From: Anaerolineae bacterium
Lineage (GTDB): Bacteria > Chloroflexota > Anaerolineae > Epilineales > JAANWY01
DNA: 62,140 nt
Direction: 5' to 3'
Assembly (NCBI GenBank): GCA_046758565.1
Contig: JBHIAO010000001.1
Span: 1-62,140 of the forward strand
The position numbers and the translations under genes were made by a program. Positions 6,022-61,365 of this stretch are shown here, in pieces (position 1 is the stretch's first letter; each line of letters begins with the position of its first letter). The notes below the pieces were generated by a model. The model saw only the letters and a program-made list of their open reading frames with translations, did no database searches and was not told where the DNA came from.

Positions 6022-7797
6022 ATGAAGCGCCTTGAAACAGAAATCCTGGTGATTGGTGGTGGTGCTACCGGCACGGGTATCGCCTGGGATGCTGCCCTGC
6101 GGGGGTTCCAGGTGGTGTTGGTGGAAAAGAGGGACCTGACTCACGGCACCACCGGTCGCTATCACGGTCTGGTGCACAGCGGGGGACGCTACGCGGTGAA
6201 GGACCCCCAGAGTGCCGCCGAGTGCATCGCCGAAAACCGCGTTCTGCGCCGCACCCACACCCACTGCATCGAGGACACCGGCGGCTTCTTCGTCGTCACG
6301 CCCGAGGACGAAGGCGACTATCCTGACGAGTTCAAGGTTGCCTGCGACCGCATCGGCATCCCTTGCGACGAAATCTCTGTGACCGACGCTCTGCGCCGAG
6401 AGCCGCTGCTTAACCCGCGCATCAGCCGCGTCTTTGAGGTGCCTGACGCCGCCGCCGACAGCTTCCTGGCCACTCACGCCTCCGCCCAGGCAGCCCATCT
6501 GGCCGGCGCCCAGATTCTGATCTATCACGAGGTGGTGGGGCTGCTGATGGAAGGCGGCGAAGGCGAGCGACGGGTGGTGGGTGCTCGTGTGCGCGATGTG
6601 ACCAGTGGCGAAGATGTGACAATTCATGCCGCCATGACCATCAACGCCACCGGTGCCTGGGCCGGCCAGATCGCCTGGATGGCCGGCGTCACGGTTAACG
6701 TGATCCCAGGCAAGGGCACCATGATAGCCATGAACCACCGGGTGGTCAACACCGTCATCAACCGCTGCAAAATGCCGGCCGACGGCGACATCATCGTGCC
6801 CATCCACACCGTCGCCGTCATCGGCACCACCGACGAAAAGGTGGACGATCCCGAGAACCTGCGCATCGAGCCGTGGGAAGTCCAGTTGATGCTGGATGAG
6901 GGCGAAAAGCTGGTGCCCCGTATCAGCCAGGCGCGGGTTCTGCGGGCCTGGGCCGGCGTGCGCCCCCTCTATCAAGAAGAGTCAACCGTCAACACGCGGG
7001 ACATCACCCGCTCTTTCACCCTGCTGGATCACAAAGAACGGGATGGCGTGGCCGGCCTGTTGACGATGATCGGCGGCAAGTGGACCACGTTCCGCATGAT
7101 GGCTGAGAAAACCGTGGACAAAGCCGGCGACCAGTTGGGCGTTAGCAAGCCCTGCAGCACCGCCAGCACACCCGTCCCCGGCGTCGAACAAGGCCATTAC
7201 TGGCTGGGCCATCGGCTGCATGAAGTGGAAGATAAACGCTTGCAGAGCGAACTGGTCTGCGAATGCGAACTGGTGACACGCTCCATGCTGGAAAACGCCG
7301 CTCGTCAAAACCCCACTCTCACACTGGACGACCTGCGCCGGGACGTGCGCCTGGGCATGGGGCCGTGCCAGGGTGGGTTCTGCACGTATCGAGCGGTGGG
7401 GATTTTGCACGAAATGGCTGTCGCTGGGTATTGGGTATTAGGTATTGGATATTCGGAGGGTGCGGATCAGTGGAATGTGGCGTACATGCAGTCTCCAGCC
7501 CATCACAGTCCCCAATACCCAATACCCAATACCCAATACTCAATACCTGCATTGGCTAACTCGAATCTATTGCTGCGCGACTTCCTCCAGGAACGCTGGA
7601 AGGGCCTGACACCCATCCTCTGGGGCCGGCAACTGCAGCAGGAGCGGCTGGATGAGTTGATCTACCTGAGCTTGCTGAACGCAGATCACCTGCCTGGAGC
7701 AGAACTGACCAGCCCCCTGAGCGATTTCTATCTGTTCGATACCACTCCTATCGAGGAGACAGAGGGGAAGGAAGAGCCAGAGGAGCCAGATGTTTGA
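6022..7797 (+). CDS. glpA: anaerobic glycerol-3-phosphate dehydrogenase subunit A
   Basis: 591 aa. FAD fold ILVIGGGATGTGIA, DAO domain, and a C-terminal BFD-like 2Fe-2S motif (CECE..., GPCQGGFC). Followed by glpB and glpC. Confidence 0.9.
   Translation: MKRLETEILVIGGGATGTGIAWDAALRGFQVVLVEKRDLTHGTTGRYHGLVHSGGRYAVKDPQSAAECIAENRVLRRTHTHCIEDTGGFFVVTPEDEGDYPDEFKVACDRIGIPCDEISVTDALRREPLLNPRISRVFEVPDAAADSFLATHASAQAAHLAGAQILIYHEVVGLLMEGGEGERRVVGARVRDVTSGEDVTIHAAMTINATGAWAGQIAWMAGVTVNVIPGKGTMIAMNHRVVNTVINRCKMPADGDIIVPIHTVAVIGTTDEKVDDPENLRIEPWEVQLMLDEGEKLVPRISQARVLRAWAGVRPLYQEESTVNTRDITRSFTLLDHKERDGVAGLLTMIGGKWTTFRMMAEKTVDKAGDQLGVSKPCSTASTPVPGVEQGHYWLGHRLHEVEDKRLQSELVCECELVTRSMLENAARQNPTLTLDDLRRDVRLGMGPCQGGFCTYRAVGILHEMAVAGYWVLGIGYSEGADQWNVAYMQSPAHHSPQYPIPNTQYSIPALANSNLLLRDFLQERWKGLTPILWGRQLQQERLDELIYLSLLNADHLPGAELTSPLSDFYLFDTTPIEETEGKEEPEEPDV
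7426..7547. repeat. heptamer inverted repeat inside glpA: (GGGTATT)n arm, 57-nt spacer, (CCCAATA)n arm
   Basis: Left arm 7426-7453 is gggtattgggtattaggtattggatatt. Right arm 7511-7547 is cccaatacccaatacccaatacccaatactcaatacc. Translated in frame as GYWVLGIGYS...PQYPIPNTQYSIP. Confidence 0.85.
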
Positions 7798-9064
7798 CCT
7801 GATCGTGGTCGGGGCCGGCCTCGCTGGCCTGACCGCCGCGTACACCGCTTGTAGGGCCGACCTGCGCGTGCGGGTGATCGCCAAGGGGATGGGGGCCACC
7901 CATTGGAGCGCCGGCACGGTGGACGTATTGGGCTACTACCCCAACGGCAGCGCCGAGCCGGTCCAGCGGCCCCTGGAGAGCATCCAGGCCCTGACCGAGG
8001 CGCAGCCACAACATCCCTACGCTCTCCTTGGCGCGGCGCAACTGTCCAATGCCCTGCAAGCGTTCGCAGCTCTGACCGGCGAGATCGGCCTGCCCTACAT
8101 CGGGGCTGCTAACACCGGCGAAAACCTGCTGCTGCCGTCGCCGGCCGGCGCGGCGCGGCCGACGTTCCTGGCCCCCCAGGCCCAATTGGCCGGCGATCTG
8201 CGCCGCCCCGATCCGCTGCTAATTGTGGGCTTTCAGGGCATGCGGGACTTCTTCCCGGAGTTGATCGCGGCTAACCTGTGCAAGCTCGGTCACCGCGCCC
8301 GGGCGGAGTTCCTGCCCCTTGACGTGATCACTGGCCGGCATGACAGCAACACCGTGCAATTGGCCGCCGGGCTGGAGCACCCGGCCCGTCGCTCACAGTT
8401 GGCCGCCGAACTGAGACGGCTGGTCGAGCCCGGCGAGCGCATCGGCCTGCCGGCCATTTTGGGCATGGGCAAACATCTGGCAGTGCTGGCCGATTTGCAG
8501 GCCCGCGCCGGCGCCCCCATCTTCGAGATCCCCACCTTGCCGCCTAGCGTGTCGGGCATCCGCCTGGACACAGCTTTGCGCCGGCGGCTGGAGCAGTTGG
8601 GTGTGCGGGTGGAGGCCGGCATGGAGGCCATCGGCTTCCAGGCTGAGGATGGCCGGGTGTTGTGGGTGGAAACCGAGACCAGTGCGCGGCCACTGAAACA
8701 CCGGGCCGCCAAGTTCCTGCTAGCCACCGGTGGCATACTGGGGGGCGGTTTCGACAGCGACCACACAGGCCAAATGTGGGAGGTTGTATTCGACTTGCCG
8801 CTGACGGTGCCCCAGAAGCGCAGCCAGTGGTTCCGCCCCCGCTTCCTGGACCCCGCCGGCCAGCCGGTCTTCCAGGGCGGCGTGCCGGTCAGCCGGCAAT
8901 TCCAGCCACTAAACCCCGAAGGCTCGCCTGTCTACGACAATCTGTGGGCCGCCGGCGGCCTCCTGGCCCACGCCGATCCGATTCAGGAACGCAGCCTGGA
9001 GGGAATTGCGATTGCCACGGGTGCAGCCGCGGCACGACAGATCGTGCGAATCAGTAAACAGTGA
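7790..9064 (+). CDS. glpB: anaerobic glycerol-3-phosphate dehydrogenase subunit B
   Basis: 424 aa. MFDLIVVGAGLAGLTAA dinucleotide fold. 8-nt overlap with glpA. GAGGAG RBS. Confidence 0.85.
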   Translation: MFDLIVVGAGLAGLTAAYTACRADLRVRVIAKGMGATHWSAGTVDVLGYYPNGSAEPVQRPLESIQALTEAQPQHPYALLGAAQLSNALQAFAALTGEIGLPYIGAANTGENLLLPSPAGAARPTFLAPQAQLAGDLRRPDPLLIVGFQGMRDFFPELIAANLCKLGHRARAEFLPLDVITGRHDSNTVQLAAGLEHPARRSQLAAELRRLVEPGERIGLPAILGMGKHLAVLADLQARAGAPIFEIPTLPPSVSGIRLDTALRRRLEQLGVRVEAGMEAIGFQAEDGRVLWVETETSARPLKHRAAKFLLATGGILGGGFDSDHTGQMWEVVFDLPLTVPQKRSQWFRPRFLDPAGQPVFQGGVPVSRQFQPLNPEGSPVYDNLWAAGGLLAHADPIQERSLEGIAIATGAAAARQIVRISKQ

Positions 9065-19830: not shown

Positions 19831-19888
19831 ATCAGTTGTCAGTAAACAGTGATGACTGATGACTGATCACTGTTTACTGTTCACTGAG
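19831..19888. repeat. CAGTRAW-family heptamer hairpin between obg and nadD
   Basis: cagtaaacagtgat (19840-19853) pairs perfectly with atcactgtttactg (19866-19879), with a 12-nt loop. Confidence 0.85.
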
Positions 19889-21878: not shown

Positions 21879-21919
21879 GGGCGTCTCGAGATAAGTTCCG
21901 AATTTGTTGTTGGCAAAAA

Positions 21920-22007
21920 GGAACTCAGAGGAACTAGAGGGGAACTAGAGGGGAACTCAGGCGTCTCCAAGTTCCTCTTTAGTTCCCCCTAGTTCCCATT
22001 AGTTCCT
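21920..22007. repeat. GGGGAACT-family (10-11-nt unit) hairpin between the SBP and permease genes
   Basis: Left arm ggaactcagaggaactagaggggaactagaggggaactcagg. Right arm gttcctctttagttccccctagttcccattagttcct. Confidence 0.85.
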
Positions 22008-24442: not shown

Positions 24443-24450
24443 ATGGTTTT

Positions 24451-24482
24451 GGAGATTGGAGGTTAGAGATTGGAGATTAGAC
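24451..24482. repeat. GAGATT-family heptamer array (single arm)
   Basis: GGAGATT GGAGGTT AGAGATT GGAGATT AGA, directly after the aapM-like stop. No complementary arm was seen. Confidence 0.75.
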
Positions 24483-29733: not shown

Positions 29734-30534
29734 GTGACCGTGTCATCCCAAGAGGGTTTCAGGCGGACCTGGTTCCTGGGGGGGCTTTTTGTGGTGGCCA
29801 TAGTCCTTGTGATCACTGCTCTTTTCCTGCGGTTTCTGCGGACACCGGATGCCGGCCCCATCGAGACTGTTCCGACGGCCACAGTAACAACTGAAGCCGG
29901 ACTTGCAACGATGACTTCGCGACCGACGACGGTTGTTGAGGGTACGGCCTCACCTGTTCCGAGTGCGCGTCGTACCACTAGCGTCGAGCTGACCCCGTCA
30001 TCCACAGTGGAGCTGGCTACAACAGCGACCACTGTTGCCGAGGCGACAGTGACGCCGACAGCATCGCCGCTGGTGACGCCGCCAGGTGTGCCGGGCGGAG
30101 CTGGAGATACAGGAACCATCGAGGGCCAAATCGCGTTGCAGGGTCGGAACAATCGCGTAGGAATCACACTGCTGGTGGATGGTACGCCTATGGACACCAC
30201 CGATGCATCTGGTACGTTTCGCCTGAACGTGCCAGCCGGACGCTTCGCGGTGCGGGCCAGTTATCCGGGGCACATCGCAATCGAGGCGCCGGACGTGGAA
30301 GTGCGAGTTGGCGAAGTCACACGGCTGCCGGCCACGTCTTTGCCTGCTGGGGACGCAGACCGCGACGGAGATGTTGACCTATACGACATGGTGCGCTGTG
30401 CAATCGGTTTGGGACGACTGGTGCCTGCAACAGGCCCGCACGCTGATGTAAACGGCGATGGAGTCATCGATTTGCGTGACATAATCTTGACGCAGCGGAA
30501 CTACCGCGATGCCAGCCCCTTACCCTGGCAATAA
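29734..30534 (+). CDS. membrane-anchored or secreted protein with a carboxypeptidase-regulatory-like domain and a dockerin-type repeat pair
   Basis: GTG start after GGAGGAGG. N-terminal TM segment, Thr/Pro-rich linker, GTIEGQI...SGTFRLNVPAGRFAV, then DADRDGDVDLYD and DVNGDGVIDLRD calcium-binding repeats. Confidence 0.7.
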   Translation: MTVSSQEGFRRTWFLGGLFVVAIVLVITALFLRFLRTPDAGPIETVPTATVTTEAGLATMTSRPTTVVEGTASPVPSARRTTSVELTPSSTVELATTATTVAEATVTPTASPLVTPPGVPGGAGDTGTIEGQIALQGRNNRVGITLLVDGTPMDTTDASGTFRLNVPAGRFAVRASYPGHIAIEAPDVEVRVGEVTRLPATSLPAGDADRDGDVDLYDMVRCAIGLGRLVPATGPHADVNGDGVIDLRDIILTQRNYRDASPLPWQ

Positions 30535-30650
30535 GGAAAATGGAAAGGAGAGGATGGAAAAATGGAAAGGAGAGGATGGAGGATGGAAGGGGGAAGATGG
30601 AAGCGAAAACCTTTTCTCCATTCTCCATTTTCCGTTTTCCATTTTCCCTC
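30534..30650. repeat. GGAAAAT/GGAGAGG-family purine-rich hairpin
   Basis: The left arm ggaaaatggaaaggagaggatggaaaaatggaaaggagaggatgg... faces the right arm ttttctccattctccattttccgttttccattttccctc. Confidence 0.8.
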
Positions 30651-33453: not shown

Positions 33454-36089
33454 CCGCCGGCGTCGGACTCCAGGCTCTCTATGGGTTCCTCAGCCAGGTT
33501 GACGCGGAAGACGGAGCGGGCCGGCCCATTAAGCCGCACATGTGCCTCGACGGGCTCTGTGCCGATGTTGTAGCCACGCACAATCACGCCATCGCCGGCC
33601 TCGGCCGTCTTGACAGCCGTGACCACGAAGCTCGCTGGCTCAACTTCGAGCAGGGTGCTGGTCGACGGAAGTGGACCCGTACTGACGCCCGTCGTGACGG
33701 CCTGGAAGGGCGCGTTGAACGCGTGTGCCTGGGCGAAAGCCGTCTGCCAGTCGCCGGCATGGGGGATCAGCGAATATTCAAAGGTGTTTTTGCCCAGGCA
33801 TTGAGCTTCCGGAGTCGCAAGGAATGGGCCAGCGTGGCCCTCGCGGCATGGAAAATCGTCCCGCGACAACCAACCCACACACCGGAGCAGCGTGATCGCA
33901 ATCGTGCTGCCCGATGGACGCTCGATAACTTCATATTCCGGCAATCCACGGTTCGCTACCATCAATCCGACATCGCCATCAGTGACATCCACAAAGATGC
34001 TCTGGGGGTGGGTACCCACCGGCTGTTCGACCCAGTCGGACGTGTCCTGGGGTAGGTCGATGGACCGCTCAACGACATCGAACTGGCTCTCGGCCGCGTT
34101 GTGGTCGGTCTGAACTGGTGTGGGGAATTGCACCCCTAACCGGTGGTCCCTGGCACGGTTGTCCACCGTGGTCTGAACGTCGATGCGCGGTACGCCGGGC
34201 GACAAGCTGACTGTGGTCGTAATGGGGACTTCGACAAGCTCCTGGCTGCGCGCTTGTCGGTCCTCGGTCAGGGCCGCCGGCAACCGGTAGGTCATCGCGA
34301 TGCGCACGGACTGGCGCGCTGGCCCCCCCGTGTGGCTGATTCTGGGCGGCTGTGCCGGCGTATCGACCACGAGATGCTCTGCTGGCGGGCAGTAGTTGTA
34401 CTCATCCCCTCGATCACCGCCATCGACAAACCGATTCAGGCCTCGGAAAACGGCACCCGTCTGCTTGTCAACAACCGTCAACGTACCGTCAGTTGCATCA
34501 ACTTGCACCTTAAAAAACTCATTCTCAAGTGTCGTCTTCCCTGCCGGACCTACAGTCTTAGTTCCCCTTAGTTCCTCTAAGTTCCCCTGAGTTCCCCTCC
34601 TATTAGTTCCCCTAAGTTCCCCCGAGTTCCGCTTAGTTCCCATTTTCTTCAGCGCAAACGTCCGATACCCATGACCTGGGACATCCGCCGCCACGAACTG
34701 TACGTGCTTCTCAGGCACCTCCGTTGGAAGCGGCCGGCCATGTTCGTCGACGACGGTCCACGGGCCGTTACCAGCCGGGAGCGGCATCTCAACCGTCACG
34801 ATGTCGGTACGCGGGCCGGCCGCCGGGTTGAAGACGACGATCGGGATGCCCGCGTCGAAGGCCGTGGTATTGACCTTGCCGGCGATGGTCGCCAGACTTT
34901 CTGCTGTCACTGCTTTGGCAATCTGCTCGGCCCAGTCAAACCGCGCCACCATTTCGCGGTGCACCTGATCGACGCTGCAGCCGCAGATGCTGTCGTGCGG
35001 ATGGTTCTCGACTAGGTAGCGCCACGCCTGCCACACCTGAGCACCACGATCGGGACCGCCCAACATCCACGCCCACGCGCTGAACGGCTCCGCCCAGCGT
35101 TCCAGTAACGTCTCCAGGGCGTGGTTGCGCTGCTTAATCCACATCCGCGTGGATAGAACACCGGGTAGGAGGTGGTGGCGCCTGGGAGAGCGCAGCTCAC
35201 CCTGAACGATGGGGACGGTTGAAGGTGGAGGGTATGAACCTCCGACCTTCAACCCTTCATCTGGCTCAGGACGCTGCCCAGCACCTTCAACCGCTGATGG
35301 GTCGAGTCCCAAGCCGTGGCGGACGGTGGCGATGAATTGAGGCAATGTGCTATGAATCAACTGGATGCCGTCCAACTGGCGGTTTGCGTACGCGATTAAC
35401 GTCGGCAGTTCGCGCATAGGCGGCATGTGATCGGTGCCGTTCATGAGAAGAACGTAGGGCGACTCGGTGTGCGGTGCGAGGCTGTCCACGCGGTCGCGGA
35501 TGGCAGCGCTGAACTCGTCTGGGTCGCTTGGCAGCGAAGCTGCGTTGTCATACCCATCGCGTAGATAGACGACGAACACCTGAGTGCCATCAGCGGCAGC
35601 CCAGCGCAAGAGTGCGGGCTCGTCGGCCAGGCCCCGCCGGAAGACAGCGGTGTCGATGCCGAAGCCGGCCAGGATTTGGGGGAGCTGCGAGATGTGGCCG
35701 AAGGGGTCCGGCACATAGCCGACCTTCATCATTGGGCCGAATCGCCGGCAGACACGCTGGCCCAGCATCAGATTTCGAATCGTGGCCTCGCCACTGACCA
35801 GGAACTCGTCGGGCAGGATATACCACGGGCCGATGAGCAGGCGGCCGGCCAGGACGTGCAGGCGAAGCTCATCCTCGCGCTCCGGTCGAACCGCCAGATA
35901 GTCTTCCAGGATGATGGCCTGACCATCAAGCGTGAAGAAGCGATAGTCGGTATTCTCGGCCAGGATGTCCAGCAGGTCGTCGATCAGGTCGACCAGCTTG
36001 AGTCGGAATTCTTGAAATGGGAGGTACCATTCACGGTCCCAGTGGGTGTGCGATACGATGTGAGCAGTGAGGCTCATCGTGAAGACCAA
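33315..36089 (-). CDS. GH38 alpha-mannosidase (mannosylglycerate hydrolase-like)
   Basis: 924 aa. N-terminal HTHWDREWY metal-binding motif, then the GH38 central and C-terminal beta domains. Confidence 0.88.
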   Translation of the reverse strand: MVFTMSLTAHIVSHTHWDREWYLPFQEFRLKLVDLIDDLLDILAENTDYRFFTLDGQAIILEDYLAVRPEREDELRLHVLAGRLLIGPWYILPDEFLVSGEATIRNLMLGQRVCRRFGPMMKVGYVPDPFGHISQLPQILAGFGIDTAVFRRGLADEPALLRWAAADGTQVFVVYLRDGYDNAASLPSDPDEFSAAIRDRVDSLAPHTESPYVLLMNGTDHMPPMRELPTLIAYANRQLDGIQLIHSTLPQFIATVRHGLGLDPSAVEGAGQRPEPDEGLKVGGSYPPPSTVPIVQGELRSPRRHHLLPGVLSTRMWIKQRNHALETLLERWAEPFSAWAWMLGGPDRGAQVWQAWRYLVENHPHDSICGCSVDQVHREMVARFDWAEQIAKAVTAESLATIAGKVNTTAFDAGIPIVVFNPAAGPRTDIVTVEMPLPAGNGPWTVVDEHGRPLPTEVPEKHVQFVAADVPGHGYRTFALKKMGTKRNSGELRGTNRRGTQGNLEELRGTKTVGPAGKTTLENEFFKVQVDATDGTLTVVDKQTGAVFRGLNRFVDGGDRGDEYNYCPPAEHLVVDTPAQPPRISHTGGPARQSVRIAMTYRLPAALTEDRQARSQELVEVPITTTVSLSPGVPRIDVQTTVDNRARDHRLGVQFPTPVQTDHNAAESQFDVVERSIDLPQDTSDWVEQPVGTHPQSIFVDVTDGDVGLMVANRGLPEYEVIERPSGSTIAITLLRCVGWLSRDDFPCREGHAGPFLATPEAQCLGKNTFEYSLIPHAGDWQTAFAQAHAFNAPFQAVTTGVSTGPLPSTSTLLEVEPASFVVTAVKTAEAGDGVIVRGYNIGTEPVEAHVRLNGPARSVFRVNLAEEPIESLESDAGGWVRVPVRSREIITLKFHTPEVTCQSLGRAGVLRPYGWHSRTTAPS
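34557..34641. repeat. GGGGAACT-family array (single orientation, about 8 units) inside the GH38 gene
   Basis: cttagttcccc ttagttcctc taagttcccc tgagttcccc ... ttagttccc, translated in frame on the minus strand as GTKRNSGELRGTNRRGTQGNLEELRGTKT. Confidence 0.85.
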
Positions 36090-38118: not shown

Positions 38119-38222
38119 CGAGAAAAAACCTCCTTAGCATAGAACTGATACGATTTGGGTGTGGTTCAAAAGCCCCCGAAACTCGGGTGAACCATGTAGT
38201 AGGTTGGTGAACACGCAAAATA

Positions 38223-38249
38223 TTAGCACTCTACCGATGAGAGTGCCAA
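38223..38249. promoter_or_regulatory. CIRCE operator (HrcA binding site)
   Basis: TTAGCACTC-taccgatga-GAGTGCCAA, one mismatch from the TTAGCACTC-N9-GAGTGCTAA consensus. It sits just downstream of the groES -10. Confidence 0.9.
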
Positions 38250-38259
38250 TGGCGGGGAT

Positions 38260-38290: not shown

Positions 38291-38372
38291 TCAGTAATCA
38301 GTAACCAGTGATCAGTAAACAGTAATCAGAATCTATTACTGTTTACTGATCACTGGTTACTGGTCACTGATT
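38291..38372. repeat. CAGTRAW-family heptamer hairpin between the TPR gene end and the groES promoter
   Basis: tcagtaatcagtaaccagtgatcagtaaacagtaatcag, loop aatct, then attactgtttactgatcactggttactggtcactgatt. The complement is nearly perfect. Confidence 0.9.
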
Positions 38373-39511: not shown

Positions 39512-39619
39512 GAAGTCCTCTCCCGAAGATGGCCGTGTACAGTCACGTTTGACAGTTGCCGGAATTAATTATAGCACGCCGCCCAACCGCGGTAAAGTTT
39601 ACTTGGGAGAGATGGGCTT

Positions 39620-39711
<92 letters not shown>

Positions 39712-39814: not shown

Positions 39815-41263
39815 ATGGTATCTATCATCACCCCCGATTGGGTCAAAGACGCCGTTTTCTATCAGATTTTTCCTGACCGCTTTGCCCGAAGTGACGCTGT
39901 TCCGAAGCCCTCGAACCTGGAACGGTGGGATGATCCGCCCACGCGCCGCGGTTTCAAAGGAGGCGATCTTCTAGGTGTGGTCGAGCGTCTGGACTACCTG
40001 CAGGACCTTGGTGTCACGGCCATTTACTTCAACCCGATTTTCCAATCTGCGGCTAATCATCGCTATCACACCCACGACTACTACCACGTGGACCCGATCC
40101 TGGGGGGCGACGCGGCTTTCCGGCACTTATTAGACACAGCCCACGAGCGCGGTATCCGGATCATCCTCGACGGTGTGTTTAACCACGCCAGCCGGGGTTT
40201 CTACCAGTTTCATCACCTCATGGAGAATGAGGCTGATTCACCTTACGTTGATTGGTTTCAGGTTAAGGGGTTTCCCCTGCACGCGTACGATGAGAGAAAG
40301 CCCCCGAACTACATGGCTTGGTGGAACTTACATGCGCTGCCCAAGCTGAACACGAACACGCCGGCTGTCCGTCAGTTTCTGTGGGACGTAGGCCGGCACT
40401 GGATCGAGTTAGGCGCGGATGGTTGGCGACTGGACGTGCCCGGAGAGATCGACGATGATGAGTTCTGGCGGGAGTTTCGCCGGCAGGTGAAGGAGGCTAA
40501 TCCCGAGGCCTACGTGGTCGGTGAGATCTGGGGCGATGCCACGCGGTGGCTGCAGGGCGATCAGTTTGATGCGACGATGAATTACCTGTTTGCAAAAGCC
40601 TGCCTGGGTTTCTTCATTCGTGACGCGGACCGAGGACTTCTGTCCGGGGTCGGTTATTCGCCCGTGCCTACTCTGGAAGTGGCTGAGTTCGCCGTCACGA
40701 TAGAAAAGATTCTAGCTCTGTATGAGCGAGAGGTCACCGAGGCGCAACTCAACGTGCTGGACAGCCACGACACGGCCCGCTTTCTGACGATTGCGAAGGG
40801 CGATGAATCCGCCTTCCGGCTGGCGACGCTGTTTCAGATGACATACCCCGGCGCGCCCTGCATCTACTACGGCGACGAGATTGGTATGCAGGGGCGTAAG
40901 GACCCCGATTGCCGGCGTGCCTTTCCGTGGGATGAGAGCCGCTGGAACGCCGGGCTCCGCGATTTCGTCAAGCGCTGTATCGCCTTGCGGCACGCTCATC
41001 CGGCCCTGCGTCGGGGCGACTACACCCGGCTGCACGCCAGGGACGAGGTCTACGCGTTTGGCCGGCGGCTGAACAGCGAGACGCTGATCATTGCTCTCAA
41101 CAATGGTCTATCCGAAGCGACGGTGGACATCGACGTGGCAGGGTATTTGCCCGATGGCGCGCTCATGGTTGATGTGTGGGGGGAGGCAGTGGCGACCGCA
41201 GAAGATGGTGAGTTGCCCTTGAGCATCCCGATGCGATCGGGCTGCGTGATGCGGGTTGCGTGA
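39815..41263 (+). CDS. GH13 alpha-amylase-family enzyme (neopullulanase/cyclomaltodextrinase-like)
   Basis: [23 protein letters not shown]. Conserved regions [20 protein letters not shown] and LDSHD. The ORF-track start at 39758 is probably too early. Confidence 0.9.
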
Positions 41264-41286
41264 TCCGGGATGCGTGATGCGTGAAG
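41225..41286. repeat. GGATGCG/GCGTGAT heptamer array, the reverse-complement orientation of the CGCATCC family
   Basis: gctgcgtgat gcgggtt gcgtgat ccgggat gcgtgat gcgtgaa. The amylase stop TGA (41261-41263) is part of a GCGTGAT unit. Confidence 0.8.
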
Positions 41287-42440: not shown

Positions 42441-42547
42441 AGGTGCAGGGGAGCCAGGGTGAGGGGGAGAAGGGGAGACAAGGAGACACGGAGAGAATCG
42501 ACCGAGCTCCTTGTCTCCCCTTCTCCGTGTCTCCTTGTCCCCTTGTC
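42441..42547. repeat. GGGGAGA/CAAGGAG-family hairpin between convergent genes
   Basis: Left arm ...gagggggagaaggggagacaaggagacacggagag, loop aatcgaccgag, right arm ctccttgtctccccttctccgtgtctccttgtccccttgtc. Confidence 0.85.
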
Positions 42548-43191: not shown

Positions 43192-43309
43192 ACGCTTCTG
43201 CTCTCCAATCTCAGTAGATCACAATTTGCTCCTGCTGTGTCAAACCTGATTATAGGTTCAGGGTGCTTCTGCGTCAATGCGCCTGTTCGCGTGGTGGCAG
43301 CAAATCAGG

Positions 43310-43382
43310 GTAGGGGCGAGGCAAGTCGGAGAGCAGGTTCATTATGCTCATGAGCCATCAATCCGACTTGCCTCGCCCCTAC
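43310..43382. repeat. perfect 21-bp inverted repeat (GTAGGGGCGAGGCAAGTCGGA ... TCCGACTTGCCTCGCCCCTAC) with a 31-nt spacer
   Basis: Arms at 43310-43330 and 43362-43382. Located in the divergent promoter region between the DsbA-like gene and phnD. Confidence 0.85.
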
Positions 43383-43611
43383 AAGGATTCTTGCGTACGG
43401 CAGAAAAATGTTGTATCATACAAGCAGCATAGCACATTGCTGGTGAGCGCCATCCGATAAGGTAGCAAACTGACCGTTCGACGAACACGAGGGTCTCCGG
43501 ACGAGGGGAGGTGGTGTCTCTAGAACGCAGTGCAACTATCGACCACCTGTTGAAGTTTCCTGATTGACCTTTCCAGGTTTGTGATGCTTCCACAAAGGAG
43601 GAGAATCCATC

Positions 43612-44725: not shown

Positions 44726-44762
44726 CCAACGACGAACGACCAACACCGTCGTTCGTCGTTGG
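44726..44762. repeat. CGACGAA-family heptamer hairpin after phnD
   Basis: 15-bp perfect stem: CCAACGACGAACGAC (44726-44740), loop caacacc, GTCGTTCGTCGTTGG (44748-44762). Confidence 0.85.
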
Positions 44763-44995: not shown

Positions 44996-45754
44996 ATGCT
45001 GAAAGTGGAACACCTCACCAAGATCTACGAAGACGGTACACGCGCCCTGCACGACGTCAGCTTCGAGGTGCCCGACGGCCAATTTCTGGTGATTATTGGC
45101 CTAAGTGGCTCGGGGAAGTCTACCCTGCTGCGCTGCATCAACCGCCTGATCGAGCCCACCGAAGGGCGTGTGATGTGGAACGACATCGACATCACCGCCG
45201 CCCCCCAGGAGGAATTGCGCCGGATCCGCCGCCGGATCGGGATGATCTTCCAGCATTTCAACCTGGTGAAGCGCTCCAAGGTGATCACCAACGTGCTGGC
45301 CGGCCGGCTGGGATATACCAACCCGGCCTGGAGCCTGTTCAATCACTTTCCCAAGGCCGATGTGGCGCTGGGGCTTCAAAGTCTCGAGCGGGTGGGGATC
45401 GCGGATCAGGCCCATAAGCGGGCGGACGAACTGAGCGGCGGCCAGCAGCAGCGGGTGGGGATCGCGAGGGCTCTAATGCAGAACCCGGAACTGATGCTGG
45501 TGGACGAACCCGTCTCCGCATTGGACCCCGCCACCTCACACTCCATCATGCGTTATCTGGACCAATTGAACAAGGAGGATGGCGTGACCATTGTGTGCAG
45601 CCTCCACTTCCTGAGCCTGGCCCGCGCCTACGCAGATCGTATCATCGCCCTCAAGGACGGGCGCATGGTCTTCGACGGCCCGCCCGAGGAAATCGACGAC
45701 GCTCGCTTCCGCGAGATCTACGGCGAGGAAGCCGAGCAGGTGGAGATCAGGTGA
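44996..45754 (+). CDS. phnC: phosphonate ABC transporter ATP-binding protein
   Basis: MLKVEHLTKIY..., [32 protein letters not shown]. The ORF-track start at 44897 is an upstream extension. Confidence 0.9.
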   Translation: MLKVEHLTKIYEDGTRALHDVSFEVPDGQFLVIIGLSGSGKSTLLRCINRLIEPTEGRVMWNDIDITAAPQEELRRIRRRIGMIFQHFNLVKRSKVITNVLAGRLGYTNPAWSLFNHFPKADVALGLQSLERVGIADQAHKRADELSGGQQQRVGIARALMQNPELMLVDEPVSALDPATSHSIMRYLDQLNKEDGVTIVCSLHFLSLARAYADRIIALKDGRMVFDGPPEEIDDARFREIYGEEAEQVEIR

Positions 45755-45848
45755 CCAGTAATCAGTAAACAGTGATCAGTAAACAGTTAACAGTGATCTT
45801 ATCTGACCACTGACTACTGATCACTGTTTACTGATCACTGTTTACTGG
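45747..45848. repeat. CAGTRAW-family heptamer hairpin between phnC and phnE
   Basis: The left arm tcaggtgaccagtaatcagtaaacagtgatcagtaaacagttaacagtgatc faces the right arm cactgactactgatcactgtttactgatcactgtttactgg. The phnC TGA (45752-45754) lies in the first unit. Confidence 0.9.
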
Positions 45849-47697: not shown

Positions 47698-47741
47698 GCT
47701 AAAGAGGAACTTAGGGGAACTGTGAGGAACTAGAGGGAAGC
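47698..47741. repeat. GGGGAACT-family array (single arm) after phnE
   Basis: gctaaagaggaacttaggggaactgtgaggaactagagggaagc begins 2 nt after the phnE stop. Confidence 0.7.
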
Positions 47742-49948: not shown

Positions 49949-49997
49949 GTATTCATATTCTTTGCCATAGCGCCTCTTCTATGCTAGAATCGCCGGC

Positions 49998-53654: not shown

Positions 53655-53776
53655 CTCTGCAATTTGTCAATAGAAATTGTCTCTAGACGTTGCACTGGCT
53701 CTGATGTGATTGAAACGGTGAGAACTGGCCGGTTCTTGCTGACATTATCCTTGGCCTGGAAAGGAGTTGAGTATGA

Positions 53777-53977: not shown

Positions 53978-53979
53978 CA

Positions 53980-56193: not shown

Positions 56194-56244
56194 GGATTGG
56201 AGATTGGAGATTAGAGATTGGATATTCAATCTCTAATCTCTCGA
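56194..56244. repeat. GAGATT-family heptamer hairpin directly after the ftsK stop
   Basis: 14-bp perfect stem: GAGATTAGAGATTG (56207-56220) with CAATCTCTAATCTC (56227-56240), loop gatatt. Confidence 0.9.
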
Positions 56245-56260
56245 TGAAAGAAGCGTAGTC

Positions 56261-56926: not shown

Positions 56927-56961
56927 TTTCCATCGACCACGGCCCTCGGCAGATAACGGGA

Positions 56962-56989
56962 CCGGTCGGAGCTATACAGCTCCGACCGG
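56962..56989 (+). terminator. hairpin after the LysE-type gene (possible terminator, no U-tract)
   Basis: 11-bp stem: CCGGTCGGAGC (56962-56972) with GCTCCGACCGG (56979-56989), loop tataca. Confidence 0.4.
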
Positions 56990-57026
56990 CTACTTGAGAA
57001 GAGGAACTTCAGAAGGCGCGATAAAT

Positions 57027-57059
57027 GCCGGCCGGGGTCATCCCCACACCCCGGCCGGC
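57027..57059 (-). terminator. strong GC hairpin with a U-rich tail on the minus strand
   Basis: Stem GCCGGCCGGGG (57027-57037) with CCCCGGCCGGC (57049-57059). The minus strand continues ATTTAT. No minus-strand gene is annotated upstream of it. Confidence 0.5.
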
Positions 57060-57482
57060 TTACAGGCCCGAGCTATTCGAAGTGAGGAGGGCACTCCGCG
57101 CCCCAGTGCCGGCGAGGACAGGAACGACGACCACCCGACACCGGCCAGCCCGGGCCTATTTAGAGAGGCGTAAGTATTATCTCTTTCCGATGTCACGTGA
57201 CGCTCACGAAGTGCCGGCACCGCCTGCGATCTTCCCCGCAAAGCGGGTAGTGTTTGAGACACATACACGGGAGACCCGTCTGGGTCTCCCTTTCACTTTC
57301 TGCACGATACGGATACTCCGTCCACGGCCCACGGATCCAGGGCCCTGACCCGATCGCCGGCCAAGTCTGGCCTGACCACACGCTGTTCCTGTCTGCCATA
57401 CTTATGGCCCACCCGCGCCAGAAAGACCGCCGATCGCCGAAGCTCGCTGCGCTCACGACCACCGACGGCCGACCACGGAACT

Positions 57483-57540
57483 CACTCTCTTCCCCCTGCC
57501 CCTCTGCTCCCCTGCACCCTGGCGCCTGCGCCCTCTGCTC
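57483..57540. repeat. C/T-rich single arm related to the GGGGAGA family
   Basis: It shares GCTCCCCTGCACC with the reverse complement of 42441-42455. Low-complexity cccctg/ccctct units. Confidence 0.5.
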
Positions 57541-57584
57541 AAGACCGGCGGCCAGTGGTCACGAGCGGAGTGAGCCATTGCCGC

Positions 57585-57613
57585 TTGCCATAAGCAACTG
57601 GGGATGGTATAAT
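57585..57613 (+). promoter_or_regulatory. sigma-70 promoter of the SNF2 block
   Basis: TTGCCA (57585-57590), 17 nt, TATAAT (57608-57613), with TGG immediately upstream of the -10. Confidence 0.6.
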
Positions 57614-57741
57614 GCGTTACAACGGTATTGGGGAGAAACAGCCATTAAGCCAGTTCTCATTTCATGCAGGTTGCTGCCAACCCCATCCCCACCCAACGCT
57701 ACTGATGCAGCCTGACGTGCACACCCATCTGGTCCTGTACG

Positions 57742-59244
57742 ATGAGCCTCCCCGCGAGGGCAACCATGACCTCAGATGATTTAACGGTCGCAACCGATCT
57801 CATCGGAGAGCGGGTTCACCTGGCCGGCCACTTCCAGGAACCGGTGACCGTCGAGGGCGTTCGCCCCCTGGGTAGCAGCGTCGAGCTGCAAGTACGGCGT
57901 GGGGATGGGCAACTCGACGAAACCATCCTGTCGGCCGACGAGGTGGACGCGCTGCTGGCTCAATTGACGACTCAGGCGGGGCCGGCCCCGCTGGCTGACC
58001 CCCACCAACTGCGGCTGCTGGTGGAATCGGCCCGCATTCGCCTGGCCTACGCCTACGACCGCCACTTCGCCGTGAGCCTCTCGGGCATCCGCACCCTGCC
58101 CCACCAGATCGAGGCCGTCTACCTCAAGATGCTCCCCCAGCCTCGCCTGCGCTTCCTGCTGGCCGACGACCCTGGCGCCGGCAAAACCATCATGGCTGGC
58201 CTGCTCCTCAAGGAGATGAAACTCCGTGAGGCCATCGAGCGGGTGCTGATCCTCGTCCCGGCCCCGCTGACCATCCAGTGGCAGGACGAGCTGCTGCGCT
58301 TCTTCGGCGAGAGCTTCCAGATCATCCATTCGGGCAACGATCAACAGCAGCTCATCAACCTGTGGCAGCGGGAGAACCAGGTCATCGCCTCGATAGACTA
58401 CGCCAAGCAAGACTCAGTGCGAGAGCGGGTGTGGCAACAGCGCTGGGATGTGCTCATCATGGACGAAGCACACAAGTGCTCGGCCTACACCAGGCGTCGT
58501 ACTGGCCGCGCCGCCGACCCTTCGACCCCGCTCAGGACAAGGGTAGATAAGACCAAGCGCTACCAACTGGCCGAACGCCTGGTGGCGCGTGTCGACCACG
58601 TCCTGCTGCTCACGGCCACACCTCACCACGGCGATGACGACCGCTTCGGCCATTTTGTACGCCTCATCGACCCCGACGTGTTCCCCGAACCCCACCGCCT
58701 GGGCGAGCAGGCCCGCGCCATCCGGCGGGACATCCTCAACCTGGCCGGCGAGTCCCCGTGGGCGCTGCGCCGCCTCAAGGAGGGCCTCCGCGACCTAGAG
58801 GGCCGGCGGCTCTTCCCCGACCGCCACGCCTACACGGTCACGTTCCAGTTGAACGCCGAGGAATTCGCCCTCTACAAGGCAGTCACAAGCTACATCAACG
58901 AGTTCCTGCCCCGAGGTGTGGGGCGACAGGCGGGCAGCGTCGCCCTGACCCGCACCGTCCTCCAGCGCCGGCTGGCCAGCTCGACTCGAGCTATCCACGA
59001 AAGCCTGCGCCGGCGCTTGGAAAAGCAACAGCGTCTGCTGCAAGAGCTGGAAGCCCTGTCGCCCCAGGAGCGTGCCCGCTACCTGGAGCGACTCCGAGGC
59101 CGGCTGACCGACGAGGAACAGGACGAGGACGACCTGGACGAGGTGGCCCGCGATCGGCTGACTGACGAGTTCACCGCTGCGGTCGAAATGGAGCAACTGC
59201 GCATGGAGGTGGCTGCCCTCCGAGACCTGGCCGAGCGGGCCTGA
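57742..59244 (+). CDS. SNF2-family helicase, N-terminal ATPase lobe (first part of an interrupted helicase-nuclease)
   Basis: 500 aa. LPHQIEAVY, motif I LADDPGAGKTIMAG, motif II IMDEAHK, motif III LLLTATPHHG, then a coiled-coil acidic insert. It ends at TGA 59242-59244, in the same frame as the next ORF. Confidence 0.85.
   Translation: MSLPARATMTSDDLTVATDLIGERVHLAGHFQEPVTVEGVRPLGSSVELQVRRGDGQLDETILSADEVDALLAQLTTQAGPAPLADPHQLRLLVESARIRLAYAYDRHFAVSLSGIRTLPHQIEAVYLKMLPQPRLRFLLADDPGAGKTIMAGLLLKEMKLREAIERVLILVPAPLTIQWQDELLRFFGESFQIIHSGNDQQQLINLWQRENQVIASIDYAKQDSVRERVWQQRWDVLIMDEAHKCSAYTRRRTGRAADPSTPLRTRVDKTKRYQLAERLVARVDHVLLLTATPHHGDDDRFGHFVRLIDPDVFPEPHRLGEQARAIRRDILNLAGESPWALRRLKEGLRDLEGRRLFPDRHAYTVTFQLNAEEFALYKAVTSYINEFLPRGVGRQAGSVALTRTVLQRRLASSTRAIHESLRRRLEKQQRLLQELEALSPQERARYLERLRGRLTDEEQDEDDLDEVARDRLTDEFTAAVEMEQLRMEVAALRDLAERA
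58518..58539. repeat. single copy of the 22-nt motif CCCTTCGAC-N3-GCTCAGGACA inside the SNF2 N-lobe
   Basis: cccttcgaccccgctcaggaca, read as PSTPLRT between helicase motifs II and III. Confidence 0.75.
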
Positions 59245-59247
59245 CAG

Positions 59248-61365
59248 GTGCGCGACAACGCCCCTGACAGCAAACTGGCCGCGCTGCGGGAGTGCCTGGC
59301 ACGCGCCCAGTTCGGGGAACTGCAGGACCGCCGGGGCAAGCTGCTCATCTTCACCGAGCATCGCGACACGCTGGCCCACCTGCGGGAGCACCTGGAGCGT
59401 TGGGGCTATACCACCTGCGAGATCCACGGCGGCATGAACCCCCACCAGCGCAAGGCAACCCAGGAGGAGTTCCGCATCCAGCGGCAGATTTGCGTGGCCA
59501 CCGGGGCCGCCGGCGAGGGCATCAATCTCCAGTTCTGTCATCTGATGATCAACTACGACCTGCCCTGGAATCCGACTCGTCTGGAACAGCGCATGGGCCG
59601 CATCCACCGCATCGGCCAGGAGCGGGACGTCTACGTCTTCAACTTCGTGGCCGAGCAAGCGCAGGATGGCCAGCCGGTCGTCGAGGGGCGCATCCTCAAG
59701 CGGTTGCTGGACAAGCTGGAGCAGATGCGCGACGCCCTGGGCCGAGAGCGGGTCTACGACGTCATCGGCGAGGTGCTGTCCCTCAACCGCGTAAACCTGC
59801 CCGAGATGCTGCGCGAGGCAGCCTACGATCCCCGCCGGCTGGATGAGTACCTGGACCAGATTGACCGCCTGGACCCGGCGCGGTTGCAGCAGTACGAGGA
59901 GGCAACCGGCATCGCCCTGGCCCGCGCCCACGTGGACTTCAGCGCCTTCCAGGAGGCCAACTTCGAGGCTGAGGAGCGGCGACTGATGCCTGAGTACGTG
60001 GCCCGCCAGTTCCTGGCTGCCTCCGAAGCGGTGGGCCTGCGGGTCGAGTCCCGGGCCGACGGGTTGTGGCGTGTGCCCCACGTGCCCCAGGACCTCCGCT
60101 CCGAGCGATTGGAGGCGGTGCGCCGGCTGGGCAAGCCGGAGTCCAGCTACCGCAAGGTAACATTCCAGAAAGAGCACCTGGAACAGGATCAACACCTGGA
60201 TGCCGTGCTGACCGGGCCAGGTCACGCCCTGTACGCCACCGTGGACGAAAAGCTGAACGAGCGTCTGGCCCCCCTGCGTGGCCAGACGGCGGTCTTCCTG
60301 GACGGAACGACCGATGTGCCCTACTGGATCCACTTCCTGGAGATGGAGATCCGGGGGGAGGAAAGCCATCCGATTCACGCCGAGCTGCTGGCAGTGTGCG
60401 AAGAGCAAGCAGGCGAAGAGCGAAGGGCGTGGGGCGAAGAGCGCTCTTCGCTTTTCGCCTCTCGCTCCACGCCTTACGCTCCACGCTTCTCCCTCTTGTC
60501 GCCCGACGTGCTTCACGACCTCGCTCCACATCCCAACCACCCAGCCACTCAGCCACCCAGCCACCCTTCCCTGGAAGCAGCGACCGACTTTGTCAAAGCC
60601 GGCTACCAGTTGTCCAGGCGTCAGGAGATTCAGGCTGAGCGGCAGCACCACGCCCAGGTGGTGCGCGAGTACCTGGAAAAGTCGTTTGAGGCCCGCATCC
60701 GCGCCGCCGAACGCCGGGTGATGGGGCTGAGAGCCCGCGAGGCCGGCGGCGAAAAAGAGGTGGCCCTGGCCCGCCAGCAGGCGGAGCGGGACCTGGAAGA
60801 TCTGCACCGGGCGCGCCGCGACCGGCTGGCCGGCCTGGACCGCCTGGCCATCGCCCGCAGCGGGCCGGTGCGCCACCTGGCCAGCGTCTGGGTGCTGCCC
60901 CCCGGTCGGGTTCTGGAAGCTGAACCGGCAGCCGCCTGGCCCGAGGATGCCGAAGCCCGCCGGCGCGTGGAACTGGCCGCCATGCGAGTGGTGATGGACT
61001 ACGAGCGCCGGCGCGGCTGGGAGCCCTTCGACATCTCAGACGAGCGGGGACCGGGTTTCGACATCCGCAGCCTGGGGCCGGCTGATCCAGCCACCGGCCA
61101 CCGTCCGGTGCGGCGCATTGAGGTCAAAGGCCGGGCGCGGGGTCAGCCCGTGCACCTGGGTACCAACCAGTGGCTCAAGGCGCGGCAGTTGCGCGACACC
61201 TACTGGCTATACGTGGTGTGGGATCCGCTGGAGGCAGGACCCGACACAGAGCCGGTGTGTATTCAGGATCCAGCCCACCGGCTGGAGTATGCAGCGCGCG
61301 AGGTGCGCATCCTCAGCGGCTATGATATTCCGGCTGAGGCAATAGAGCATGCCTCAACACGTTGA
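59248..61365 (+). CDS. SNF2-family helicase C-terminal lobe fused to a DUF3883-type PD-(D/E)xK nuclease domain (second part)
   Basis: 705 aa, GTG start two codons after the TGA. Helicase_C motifs LIFTEHRDT, ATGAAGEGINLQ and YDLPWNPTRLEQRMGRIHRIGQ. The C-terminus GFDIRS...RRIEVKGR...YWLYVVW matches the D...EVK nuclease core of DUF3883. Confidence 0.85.
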   Translation: MRDNAPDSKLAALRECLARAQFGELQDRRGKLLIFTEHRDTLAHLREHLERWGYTTCEIHGGMNPHQRKATQEEFRIQRQICVATGAAGEGINLQFCHLMINYDLPWNPTRLEQRMGRIHRIGQERDVYVFNFVAEQAQDGQPVVEGRILKRLLDKLEQMRDALGRERVYDVIGEVLSLNRVNLPEMLREAAYDPRRLDEYLDQIDRLDPARLQQYEEATGIALARAHVDFSAFQEANFEAEERRLMPEYVARQFLAASEAVGLRVESRADGLWRVPHVPQDLRSERLEAVRRLGKPESSYRKVTFQKEHLEQDQHLDAVLTGPGHALYATVDEKLNERLAPLRGQTAVFLDGTTDVPYWIHFLEMEIRGEESHPIHAELLAVCEEQAGEERRAWGEERSSLFASRSTPYAPRFSLLSPDVLHDLAPHPNHPATQPPSHPSLEAATDFVKAGYQLSRRQEIQAERQHHAQVVREYLEKSFEARIRAAERRVMGLRAREAGGEKEVALARQQAERDLEDLHRARRDRLAGLDRLAIARSGPVRHLASVWVLPPGRVLEAEPAAAWPEDAEARRRVELAAMRVVMDYERRRGWEPFDISDERGPGFDIRSLGPADPATGHRPVRRIEVKGRARGQPVHLGTNQWLKARQLRDTYWLYVVWDPLEAGPDTEPVCIQDPAHRLEYAAREVRILSGYDIPAEAIEHASTR
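60398..60570. repeat. GCGAAGA-family heptamer hairpin plus a CCACCCAG array inside the helicase-nuclease ORF
   Basis: 18-bp perfect palindrome gcgaagagcgctcttcgc (60434-60451), flanked by gcgaaga/ggcgaag units and their complements. Then ccaccca gccactca gccaccca gccaccct (60537-60566). Read in frame as CEEQAGEERRAWGEERSSLFASRSTPYAPRFSLL...HPNHPATQPPSHPS. Confidence 0.8.

Follow-up and report, generated by a model that had tools for sequence, protein, structure and literature searches.

Why do gene boundaries in one bacterial chromosome so often carry short tandem repeats that face a complementary copy of themselves? The question is raised by a 62,140-nt stretch of DNA from an Anaerolineae bacterium (contig JBHIAO010000001.1), the whole of which we call the window. 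At 18 loci along it degenerate units, typically of 7 nt, stand head to tail, either as single arrays or as hairpins in which an arm of such units is followed, after a loop, by an arm of their complements. We consider it reasonably probable that these are heptamer microsatellite arrays of the short tandemly repeated repetitive (STRR) or long simple sequence repeat (SSR) kind in a convergent-pair form, which would arise by slippage and template switching and would act on RNA in the manner of repetitive extragenic palindromic (REP) elements, and that they are not transposons.

Arrays and stems in the window

Tandem Repeats Finder (TRF) detected short-period arrays at all 18 loci (Table 1), 14 of which are non-coding, and head-to-tail 7-nt units in at least three copies occurred above chance. 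A lag-autocorrelation scan at a strict threshold returned 11 period-7 regions, 439 nt in all, where 20 dinucleotide-shuffled versions gave 0.0, with 0 or 1 region for each of the other periods from 4 to 16. The density of period-7 arrays, 1.77 per 10 kb, is about 22 times that of a background (0.079 per 10 kb) for which we took the surroundings of GroEL genes in 80 other genomes (best GroEL identity 77%), 1.4 Mb of unselected DNA altogether; these neighbourhoods are nearly free of arrays, so they were of no use for orthologous comparison and served as background density instead. Inverted-repeat arms of 20–40 nt, 75–96% complementary, were found at 7425, 9050, 19832, 21919, 30556, 38291, 39619, 42450, 45751 and 60411. 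When 14 loci were folded as RNA and scored against shuffles, 11 gave z-scores between −3.3 and −12.3 and the one at 39620 fell just short of that range, whereas the short arrays at 15383 and 41225 folded no better than shuffled sequence. At least six to seven units can be distinguished in the window, and at each of the 11 paired loci both arms belong to the same unit family, forming a convergent pair.

The original prediction, made from the letters of the sequence, had described more than 20 loci at which tandem arrays with opposed arms, built mostly of 7-nt units in unrelated families, saturate the gene boundaries. Its core holds, since the period-7 excess is present and most loci form stems, and the period-7 scan and reverse-complement search that it proposed gave both signals when run on the window, although not at every locus, the arrays at 15383, 41225 and 57483 being weak. 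The number of loci is 18, four of them weak. Period 7 is indeed specifically enriched, but units of 10–11 nt (GGGGAACT), a period of 8 at 42507 and a period of 22 in the left arm at 30537 depart from it. Nor are the families unrelated: GGAGATT, TGGGTAT, GGAAAAT and GGGGAGA lie within two substitutions of one another, and the array in glpA reads TGGGTAT here and TGGATAT or TGGAGAW in relatives. Saturation was an overstatement, as about 14 of roughly 45 junctions are affected.

Twelve of the 18 overlap the upstream stop codon or start at most 41 nt past it, the leftmost starting 14 nt before the stop, and in three of the 12 the stop codon lies inside the first units. Several fill an entire intra-operon spacer and end 16–43 nt ahead of the next start codon, as at the glpB–glpC, obg–nadD, binding protein–permease, permease–ATPase and ATPase–permease junctions. 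Two elements occupy 5′ regions, and others lie in frame within glpA, the GH38 mannosidase gene and the SNF2-like gene, possibly also within the open reading frame (ORF) at 57254–57715. As a result, arrays add peptides to proteins in frame and displace stop codons, and gene callers and homology searches will misread such places.

Short-read assemblers can be misled by short repeats and palindromes, and the contig comes from a metagenome. An assembly artefact is nevertheless practically inconceivable to us: the in-gene elements keep the reading frame, independently produced assemblies from four sources have similar arrays at the corresponding glpA position, and the relatives L206 (from NCBI) and L207 (from Logan) carry identical arrays.

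Unit turnover at the glpA linker

The syntenic glp loci of relatives, which we retrieved through GlpA homologs, provide a clean orthologous series of unit turnover in which both arms change together. In every one of them the BFD domain is joined to the conserved C-terminal region by a linker whose middle holds the conserved peptide WNVAYMQSPAH. The linker arrays read TGGGTAT and CCCAATA in the window (stem z −4.2), TGGATAT and CCAATAT in L203 (GlpA identity 84%), where they form a perfect 29-bp stem (z −8.2), and TGGAGAW and WTCTCCA in L206 and L207 (80%; z −3.8), which are two independent assemblies with the same sequence. In L204 and L205 (both 78%) the arms, AAGATTA with CCAATAY and GAAGTCG with CAATCCG, respectively, do not pair, and in L208 and L209 (76%) the repeats are absent. 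Arrays occupied the site in five of the six relatives compared, and in three of these five carriers both arms had changed together. A TAG variant in the third unit is common to the window and L203, so the two arrays are orthologous; the G/A difference between them extends across the units of both arms. The TGGAGAW unit found here in relatives is the GGAGATT family that other loci of the window carry, which indicates that families interconvert. In-frame expansions come in steps of 21 nt, and the frame is preserved.

Intergenic elements in the same loci are less constant. A GGGGAGA hairpin at the glpA stop occurs only in L203, a CAGT hairpin between glpB and glpC only in the window, and a CAGT element between glpK and glpA only in L206; at the two intergenic hairpin sites that can be compared, nothing is conserved in relatives at 76–84% protein identity. 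In the comparison of orthologous regions called for in the original prediction, elements were gained and lost among the glp relatives and units differed at glpA. These are marks of arrays that would be retained at a site able to tolerate them even as their units are replaced, and information may pass between the arms. As far as sequence comparison can tell, the glpA series favours a local process that would both generate and homogenise arrays, and it is in keeping with the earlier suggestion of a generating process, given that one site holds different units with co-changing arms.

Such arrays would be tolerated where constraint is low, in intergenic spacers and variable protein linkers, and replication slippage could lengthen them, shorten them or change their unit in place, so that a new variant may sweep an array. 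The opposed arm would be a copy of the first. About nine families are available, yet the two arms agree in family at each of the 11 paired loci, which argues that the arms are copies rather than independent arrivals, and they would most plausibly be made and re-homogenised by short-range template switching in the quasi-palindrome; two reports describe such switching as homogenising and extending inverted-repeat arms (PMC13100816, PMC3820800). Within operons, a transcribed pair would fold into a stem of 20–36 bp that begins 0–40 nt past the upstream stop codon and leaves off shortly ahead of the next ribosome-binding site. Likely consequences, similar to those of REP elements, would be that 3′ exonucleases are held up or that a double-strand RNase finds a substrate, and a spacer folded away in this manner would probably keep the stop and the next start close together. 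The arrays, their stems and positions, the turnover at an orthologous site and the wide distribution are observed; both slippage with template switching and any effect on RNA we infer.

Other repeats were seen in the glp loci of relatives. The Anaerolineales relative L206 has a heptamer array (CCAATCT / CGAAATC; 5735–5790) inside glpB, so that in-gene arrays extend beyond glpA. In the closest relative, L203, a 37-nt unit (CTCAAATTTGTAGGGCGGTTTTGCTAACCGCCTCAGC) that contains a small hairpin is repeated four times in tandem, at 99% identity, in the spacer 5′ of glpK (2118–2266). The glpB–glpC spacer of L205 (3950–4120) holds no heptamer hairpin but four short GC-rich hairpins, GCGACCTTCGGTCGC, CCCGATTCATCGGG, GGCGATTGATCGCC and GCGACCAACGGTCGC, and is therefore filled by other palindromes at the same site. 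The short contigs of the GH38 relatives L081 and L082 lack arrays.

Orientation, distribution and competing explanations

The four copies of the CAGTRAW family in the window have in common a core of some 60 nt made of alternating CAGTAAA and CAGTGAT units, whereas their flanks are unrelated and their ends ragged. The family is not private to this genome. An 18-mer of its right arm, ACTGATCACTGTTTACTG, is widespread, occurring at at least 120 loci in JGI metagenomes; among the matches listed, contig GC content ranges from 0.37 to 0.66, 19 contigs are HIP1-rich and cyanobacterium-like and the others are not, and many carry several heptamer families at 3–19 arrays per 10 kb. One contig, L193 (Ga0302215-type set), is GC-rich and Terracidiphilus-like, with a SecY (1613–2998) of 92–94% identity, and holds two CAGT-family hairpins and several arrays of AGCT-core heptamers; multi-family heptamer arrays therefore also occur in Acidobacteriota. 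Only seven viral contigs in IMG/VR matched ACTGATCACTGTTTACTG, five of them from one phage lineage (L211–L214 and L216; GC about 0.40) that has a short CAGT array of 4–5 units at a conserved position. With so few viral matches and such short arrays we saw no sign of a phage vector.

CAGT-family hairpins are almost invariably written in one direction. The order 5′-(CAGTNNN)n-loop-(NNNACTG)n-3′ prevailed by 41 to 1 at metagenome loci among the matches listed and in all four copies in the window (45 to 1 in total). Stability cannot explain this polarity, because either arrangement is symmetric between strands and yields an identical duplex. Single arrays at ORF boundaries follow the same rule, in that the strand leading away from the gene reads CAGTNNN (105 versus 20); the same holds beside stop codons (47 versus 8), where naive ORF calling cannot cause the bias. 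Across families, 11 of the 13 window hairpins have more G than C in the 5′ arm, and in all 13 this arm is rich in purines. A purine-rich 5′ arm was a weaker rule among non-CAGT hairpins from other loci (8 versus 3) and was dropped as a general description in favour of the excess of G over C, to which there are exceptions such as AGCTCCT in L193 and the window element at 44726. The polarity rule is simple and strong, and it is valid across unrelated genomes.

Several of these observations weigh against slippage and template switching as the origin of the arrays. The polarity of the hairpins is a strong one, as slippage with random template switching predicts neither it nor the orientation of single arrays. 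Slippage likewise does not predict that the same units recur across phyla, and the presence of ACTGATCACTGTTTACTG in contigs of very different GC content and phylum fits poorly with an origin that is local only, and is a hint that the arrays spread or that some sequence-specific process is involved. Copying between arms also left no trace in the order of unit variants: when unit order was shuffled in a permutation test confined to the three variable positions, mirroring was 0.60 versus 0.58, and none of 45 hairpins reached p ≤ 0.05. Arm-to-arm copying accordingly rests mainly on the shared family and the glpA comparison. Every effect on RNA, moreover, is one that we infer. A register test, in which complementarity was 0.86–0.94 in register and 0.67–0.81 at 7-nt shifts, was rejected as evidence of mirroring because the shift pushes part of an arm beyond the array, so the difference is largely an edge effect.

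What, then, might account for the arrays instead? Spread as non-autonomous mobile elements (REP or REP doublets forming hairpins (REPIN), miniature inverted-repeat transposable elements (MITE), or elements like those of the IS200/IS605 insertion sequences), moved by a trans-acting, orientation-specific enzyme encoded elsewhere, would suit the alternating core common to four loci, the identical ACTGATCACTGTTTACTG in so many metagenome contigs and in an Acidobacteriota contig, the presence or absence of elements at given sites among relatives, and the polarity, which is what a direction-specific enzyme working on hairpins should produce. We still find it rather improbable. Alignment of the four CAGTRAW copies with their flanks revealed neither terminal inverted repeats distinct from the arrays nor target-site duplications, every copy differs in unit number and has undefined ends, and no transposase or REP-associated tyrosine transposase (RAYT) domain was found in Pfam and NCBIfam scans of the roughly 46 window ORFs. 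The elements are not fixed palindromes with a recognition tetranucleotide as in REP, since unit number and ends vary and no terminal motif is conserved. At the orthologous glpA site the unit sequence was altered in place, and many coexisting unit families would need as many recognition specificities. On the unrelated flanks and the missing hallmarks of transposition, the original prediction was right to argue against one mobile element with a fixed recognition sequence. The polarity and the recurrence of units in Chloroflexota, Acidobacteriota, cyanobacteria, Beggiatoaceae and Xanthomonas would both be explained, along with CAGTNNN on the strand that leaves the gene, if the arrays were laid down not by passive slippage but by a directional, sequence-specific process shared across phyla. 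This might be reiterative 3′-end synthesis of a purine- or G-rich heptamer strand, telomerase-like or as a filler of breaks, followed by snap-back copying, or else an enzyme acting on hairpins in one orientation; we regard it as a long shot.

Selection might alternatively act on the hairpins as RNA elements, that is, intercistronic stem-loops for segment stability, RNase III cleavage, or termination and insulation, with the repeats as raw material. Very stable stems (z down to −12.3) placed 0–41 nt past stop codons and ending short of the next ribosome-binding site are what such a role would require; two follow genes for solute-binding proteins, as REP elements do in malE–malF, one closes a transcription unit upstream of the groES promoter, and both glpA arms co-vary in three relatives. 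Other observations speak against it. G–U pairs number 30 in the sense folds and 32 in the antisense folds, summed folding energies are about equal, and strand-specific selection visible as G–U pairs versus A–C mismatches was dropped for want of any asymmetry. No T-run follows any element within 15 nt, and terminator-like sites, counted between 36 and 48 kb only, are at chance (9 versus 8.1 expected) with none on an element, which makes canonical terminators unlikely. The intergenic hairpins compared are missing in relatives at 76–80% protein identity, two relatives have non-pairing arrays at glpA, and some elements are one-armed or lie within coding linkers. Selection on RNA structure, the other option in the original prediction, gained no support from these data, and we take it to be unlikely, if worth keeping in mind. 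At the level of DNA, G-quadruplexes or i-motifs have been proposed for GGGAATC arrays (PMC4692102) and protein-binding sites for TAACTGA arrays, with S1 as a candidate binder (PMC4679880). Four or more G-runs in several arms (42441; partly 21920 and 7426), the G-rich 5′ arm in 11 of 13 hairpins, which matches an orientation rule that comes with G-quadruplex evidence (PMC4692102), and a gene for an S1-domain protein in the window would fit G-quadruplex or i-motif formers, or repeated binding sites for a DNA- or RNA-binding protein. Yet CAGTRAW, the commonest family, and CGACGAA have no G-runs, so G-quadruplexes cannot be general, and where both arms are present a duplex or hairpin would compete with them; this we hold to be highly improbable. 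Slippage with template switching, together with a REP-like effect on RNA, remains the explanation that we prefer.

Host, neighbouring features and known repeat systems

With a GC content of about 59%, the window is a chromosomal segment of an ordinary kind. It contains no tRNA genes, and Rfam covariance models at gathering score gave no match anywhere in it. The Pfam and NCBIfam scans assigned glpF, glpK, glpABC, dnaA, obg, nadD, two ABC transporter operons, pyruvate kinase, a GH38 mannosidase, groES, groEL, an amylase, ftsK and a helicase resembling SNF2 and DrmD. The closest relatives of the proteins are metagenome-assembled genomes from Anaerolineae, Caldilineae and other Chloroflexota, with identities of 55–74% for GH38 and maxima of 77% for GroEL and 84% for GlpA. 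An exact-match look-up of the Obg protein gave no record, and the proteins of the window turned up on a single contig. Taken with these relatives, the lack of enrichment in the window of HIP1, the cyanobacterial octamer, identifies the host as an uncultured member of the Chloroflexota, similar to Anaerolineae or Caldilineae and without a close relative in the collections searched.

Table 1. Tandem-unit elements of the window, with their strand, the evidence for each (z, folding z-score) and their surroundings
Positions	Strand	Element	Evidence	Placement
7425–7547	+	Hairpin in frame in glpA; left (TGGGTAT)x4, 7425–7456; right (CCCAATA)x5, 7511–7547	TRF, inverted repeat, z −4.2	54-nt loop encodes the conserved WNVAYMQSPAH
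9049–9136	+	CAGTRAW-family hairpin	TRF, inverted repeat, z −7.4	Fills glpB–glpC spacer; glpB stop (TGA, 9062–9064) inside left arm
15383–15416	.	Short GAGATT array, small partial complement; weak	TRF, z −1.0	13 nt 5′ of the start of a minus-strand ORF
19831–19888	+	CAGTRAW-family hairpin	TRF, inverted repeat, z −5.4	obg (stop 19826) to nadD
21919–22007	+	GGGGAACT hairpin, 10–11-nt units	TRF, inverted repeat, z −8.8	Between solute-binding-protein gene and first permease gene of ABC operon
24449–24482	+	One-arm GGAGATT array	TRF, period-7 scan	8 nt past second permease stop, 43 nt ahead of ATPase start
30534–30650	+	Purine-rich array GGAAAAT/GGAGAGG, 22-nt super-unit, paired with (TCCATTT)x4	TRF, inverted repeat, z −3.3	Begins at stop codon of upstream gene
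34557–34641	−	One-arm GGGGAACT array, in frame in GH38 alpha-mannosidase; encodes GTKRNSGELRGTNRRGTQGNLEELRGTK	TRF, Pfam, homologs	Variable loop; missing from nearest homologs
38291–38372	−	CAGTRAW-family hairpin, 36-nt arms, 94% complementary	Inverted repeat, z −12.3	2 nt past TPR-gene stop; upstream of groES promoter and CIRCE-like operator
39619–39711	+	Asymmetric element, (GCGAGAT)x2 then (CGCATCN)x11	TRF, inverted repeat, z −2.9	Divergent region between TPR gene and amylase gene
41225–41286	+	One-arm GATGCGT/GATGCGG array, no significant hairpin	TRF, z −0.8	Spans amylase stop codon (41263)
42441–42547	+	GGGGAGA/CAAGGAG hairpin, right arm period 8	TRF, inverted repeat, z −7.3	4 nt past a stop codon
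44723–44772	+	Short CGACGAA/CGACCAA hairpin	TRF, z −5.0	31 nt past stop of phosphonate-binding-protein gene
45747–45848	+	CAGTRAW-family hairpin	TRF, inverted repeat, z −8.9	Phosphonate ATPase/permease junction; ATPase stop (45752–45754) within first unit
47698–47741	+	One-arm GGGGAACT array	TRF	1 nt past permease stop; convergent gene junction
56194–56244	+	GGAGATT hairpin	TRF, z −4.5	Directly after ftsK stop, ending 16 nt before lysE start
57483–57540	+	Weak C-rich tract, period 8/16; doubtful member	TRF	Inside unassigned ORF (57254–57715) upstream of SNF2-like gene
60398–60498	+	GCGAAGA hairpin, in frame	TRF, inverted repeat, z −5.0	C-terminal SNF2/DrmD-like ORF

A number of features stand apart from these elements. 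With up to one mismatch, the DnaA box TTATCCACA occurs 18 times in the window, where 6.9 matches would be expected, and seven of these cluster in an AT-richer segment at 15713–16125, just past the 3′ end of dnaA (16165–17664, minus strand); this segment is probably the replication origin, oriC. A TRF array within it (16073–16122; CAGTTATCCC) consists of DnaA boxes and was rejected as a heptamer element. On the minus strand at 38222–38250, a CIRCE-like inverted repeat (TTAGCACTC-N9-GAGTGCCAA) overlaps a promoter-like site 5′ of groES and would be the predicted HrcA operator of the groESL operon. The non-periodic inverted repeat at 43303–43389, found where an unassigned ORF ends and made of 40-nt arms with 80% complementarity and a 7-nt gap, is a palindrome of a different kind from the heptamer hairpins. 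The SNF2 helicase resembling DrmD of the DISARM system occupies two adjacent ORFs (57742–59244 and 59248–61365) with one stop codon between them, which would fit a split gene, a pseudogene or a sequencing error; its match to DrmD scores 188 bits, far under the 610-bit cut-off, and a NOV_C domain closes the second ORF. Relative to its nearest homologs, the GH38 protein (33315–36089) lacks a segment of about 90 amino acids and has, besides the repeat-encoded insert, an extra one of about 30 amino acids (GLGLDPSAVEGAGQRPEPDEGLKVGGSYP).

How do the arrays relate to repeats that have been described? The original prediction could place them in no known class, yet arrays of a similar kind have been reported from Xanthomonas (PMC4692102) and as TAACTGA repeats (PMC4679880), and the CAGT family is itself widespread. 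GC-rich Xanthomonas genomes hold about 186 GGGAATC arrays each, including 70–75 convergent pairs able to form stem-loops, with an average of 28 nt separating the arrays from the ORF that lies 5′ of them; the G-rich strand is sense after stops and antisense before starts, the arrays are transcribed, and 83% are common to two species (PMC4692102). The arrays of X. campestris and X. axonopodis resemble those of the window in their GC-rich host, variable copy number and mostly intergenic position, in convergent arrays of the same unit with a possible stem-loop and a G-rich 5′ arm, and in lying close behind the upstream ORF; they are transcribed within mRNAs, and their unit number varies among related species. 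They differ in having one dominant unit, whereas the window has at least six to seven, some without G-runs, in their 83% positional conservation, against none at the window's two comparable intergenic sites, and in the phylum of the host, which is Chloroflexota for the window. The G-tract-based GGGNATC unit of that class, with four G-tracts, does not describe the window either: only GGAGATT and TGGGTAT come close, CAGTRAW, CGACGAA, CGCATCC and GCGAAGA are not near it, and most arms lack four G-runs.

TAACTGA arrays lie upstream of start codons in Beggiatoaceae, cyanobacteria and Bacteroidetes (PMC4679880), and the same paper cites Mrazek (2007) for heptamers being the commonest long microsatellites of bacteria and for slippage as their proposed origin. 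Rotated and reverse-complemented, TAACTGA reads CAGTTAT and so shares the CAGT/ACTG core of the window; like the CAGT family it crosses phyla with no known vector and abuts gene ends with the same polarity, the sense strand before starts being of the ACTG type. Nearly all TAACTGA arrays are one-armed (1 inverted in 170) and lie mainly 5′ of genes, whereas in the window the CAGT family always forms a hairpin that starts at or just past a stop codon. The polarity of the window is the one described for both Xanthomonas and Beggiatoaceae.

Heptamer arrays have been known since 1990, and the STRR class was defined in heterocyst-forming cyanobacteria. Mazel et al. reportedly described the cyanobacterial heptamers in 1990, and Vioque is said to have recognised them in helix P12 of RNase P RNA in 1997. 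As in that class, several heptamer families are dispersed over one genome, mostly in non-coding DNA; GGAGATT and TGGGTAT are one or two substitutions from the STRR unit GGGGATT, CAGTRAW has the CAGT core of another STRR unit, CAACAGT, and arrays occasionally supply both strands of a helix. The host, by contrast, is no cyanobacterium, let alone the heterocyst-forming one that a strict definition demands, and HIP1 is not enriched. Pairs dominate in the window and are few in Nostoc, whose intergenic regions carry TTGTCAG and ACTGAC arrays (PMC2408588) and whose unit GGGGA(C/T)T is seldom found as paired repeats (PMC4692102).

Two further classes share the palindrome rather than the period. REP elements, REPIN and bacterial interspersed mosaic elements (BIME) of proteobacteria are likewise extragenic palindromes in operons, often just past the stop, that form stable stem-loops in mRNA. 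Unlike them, the window elements have no fixed sequence; REP are imperfect palindromes of about 35 nt with a conserved tetranucleotide and are mobilised by RAYT, whereas here there is an internal 7-nt periodicity and no RAYT was seen in the window. Rickettsia palindromic elements (RPE), which are fixed sequences of 100–150 nt without tandem substructure, lie in frame within genes, much as the palindromic repeats in glpA, the GH38 gene and the SNF2-like gene of the window sit at tolerant sites, but those of the window are built from tandem units and are not fixed in sequence. A literature search found no paper on heptamer arrays in Chloroflexota. The present observations make the STRR question testable in complete genomes and in reporter constructs, and what is new in them, set beside these systems, is a host from the Chloroflexota in which pairs, built of many different units, prevail.

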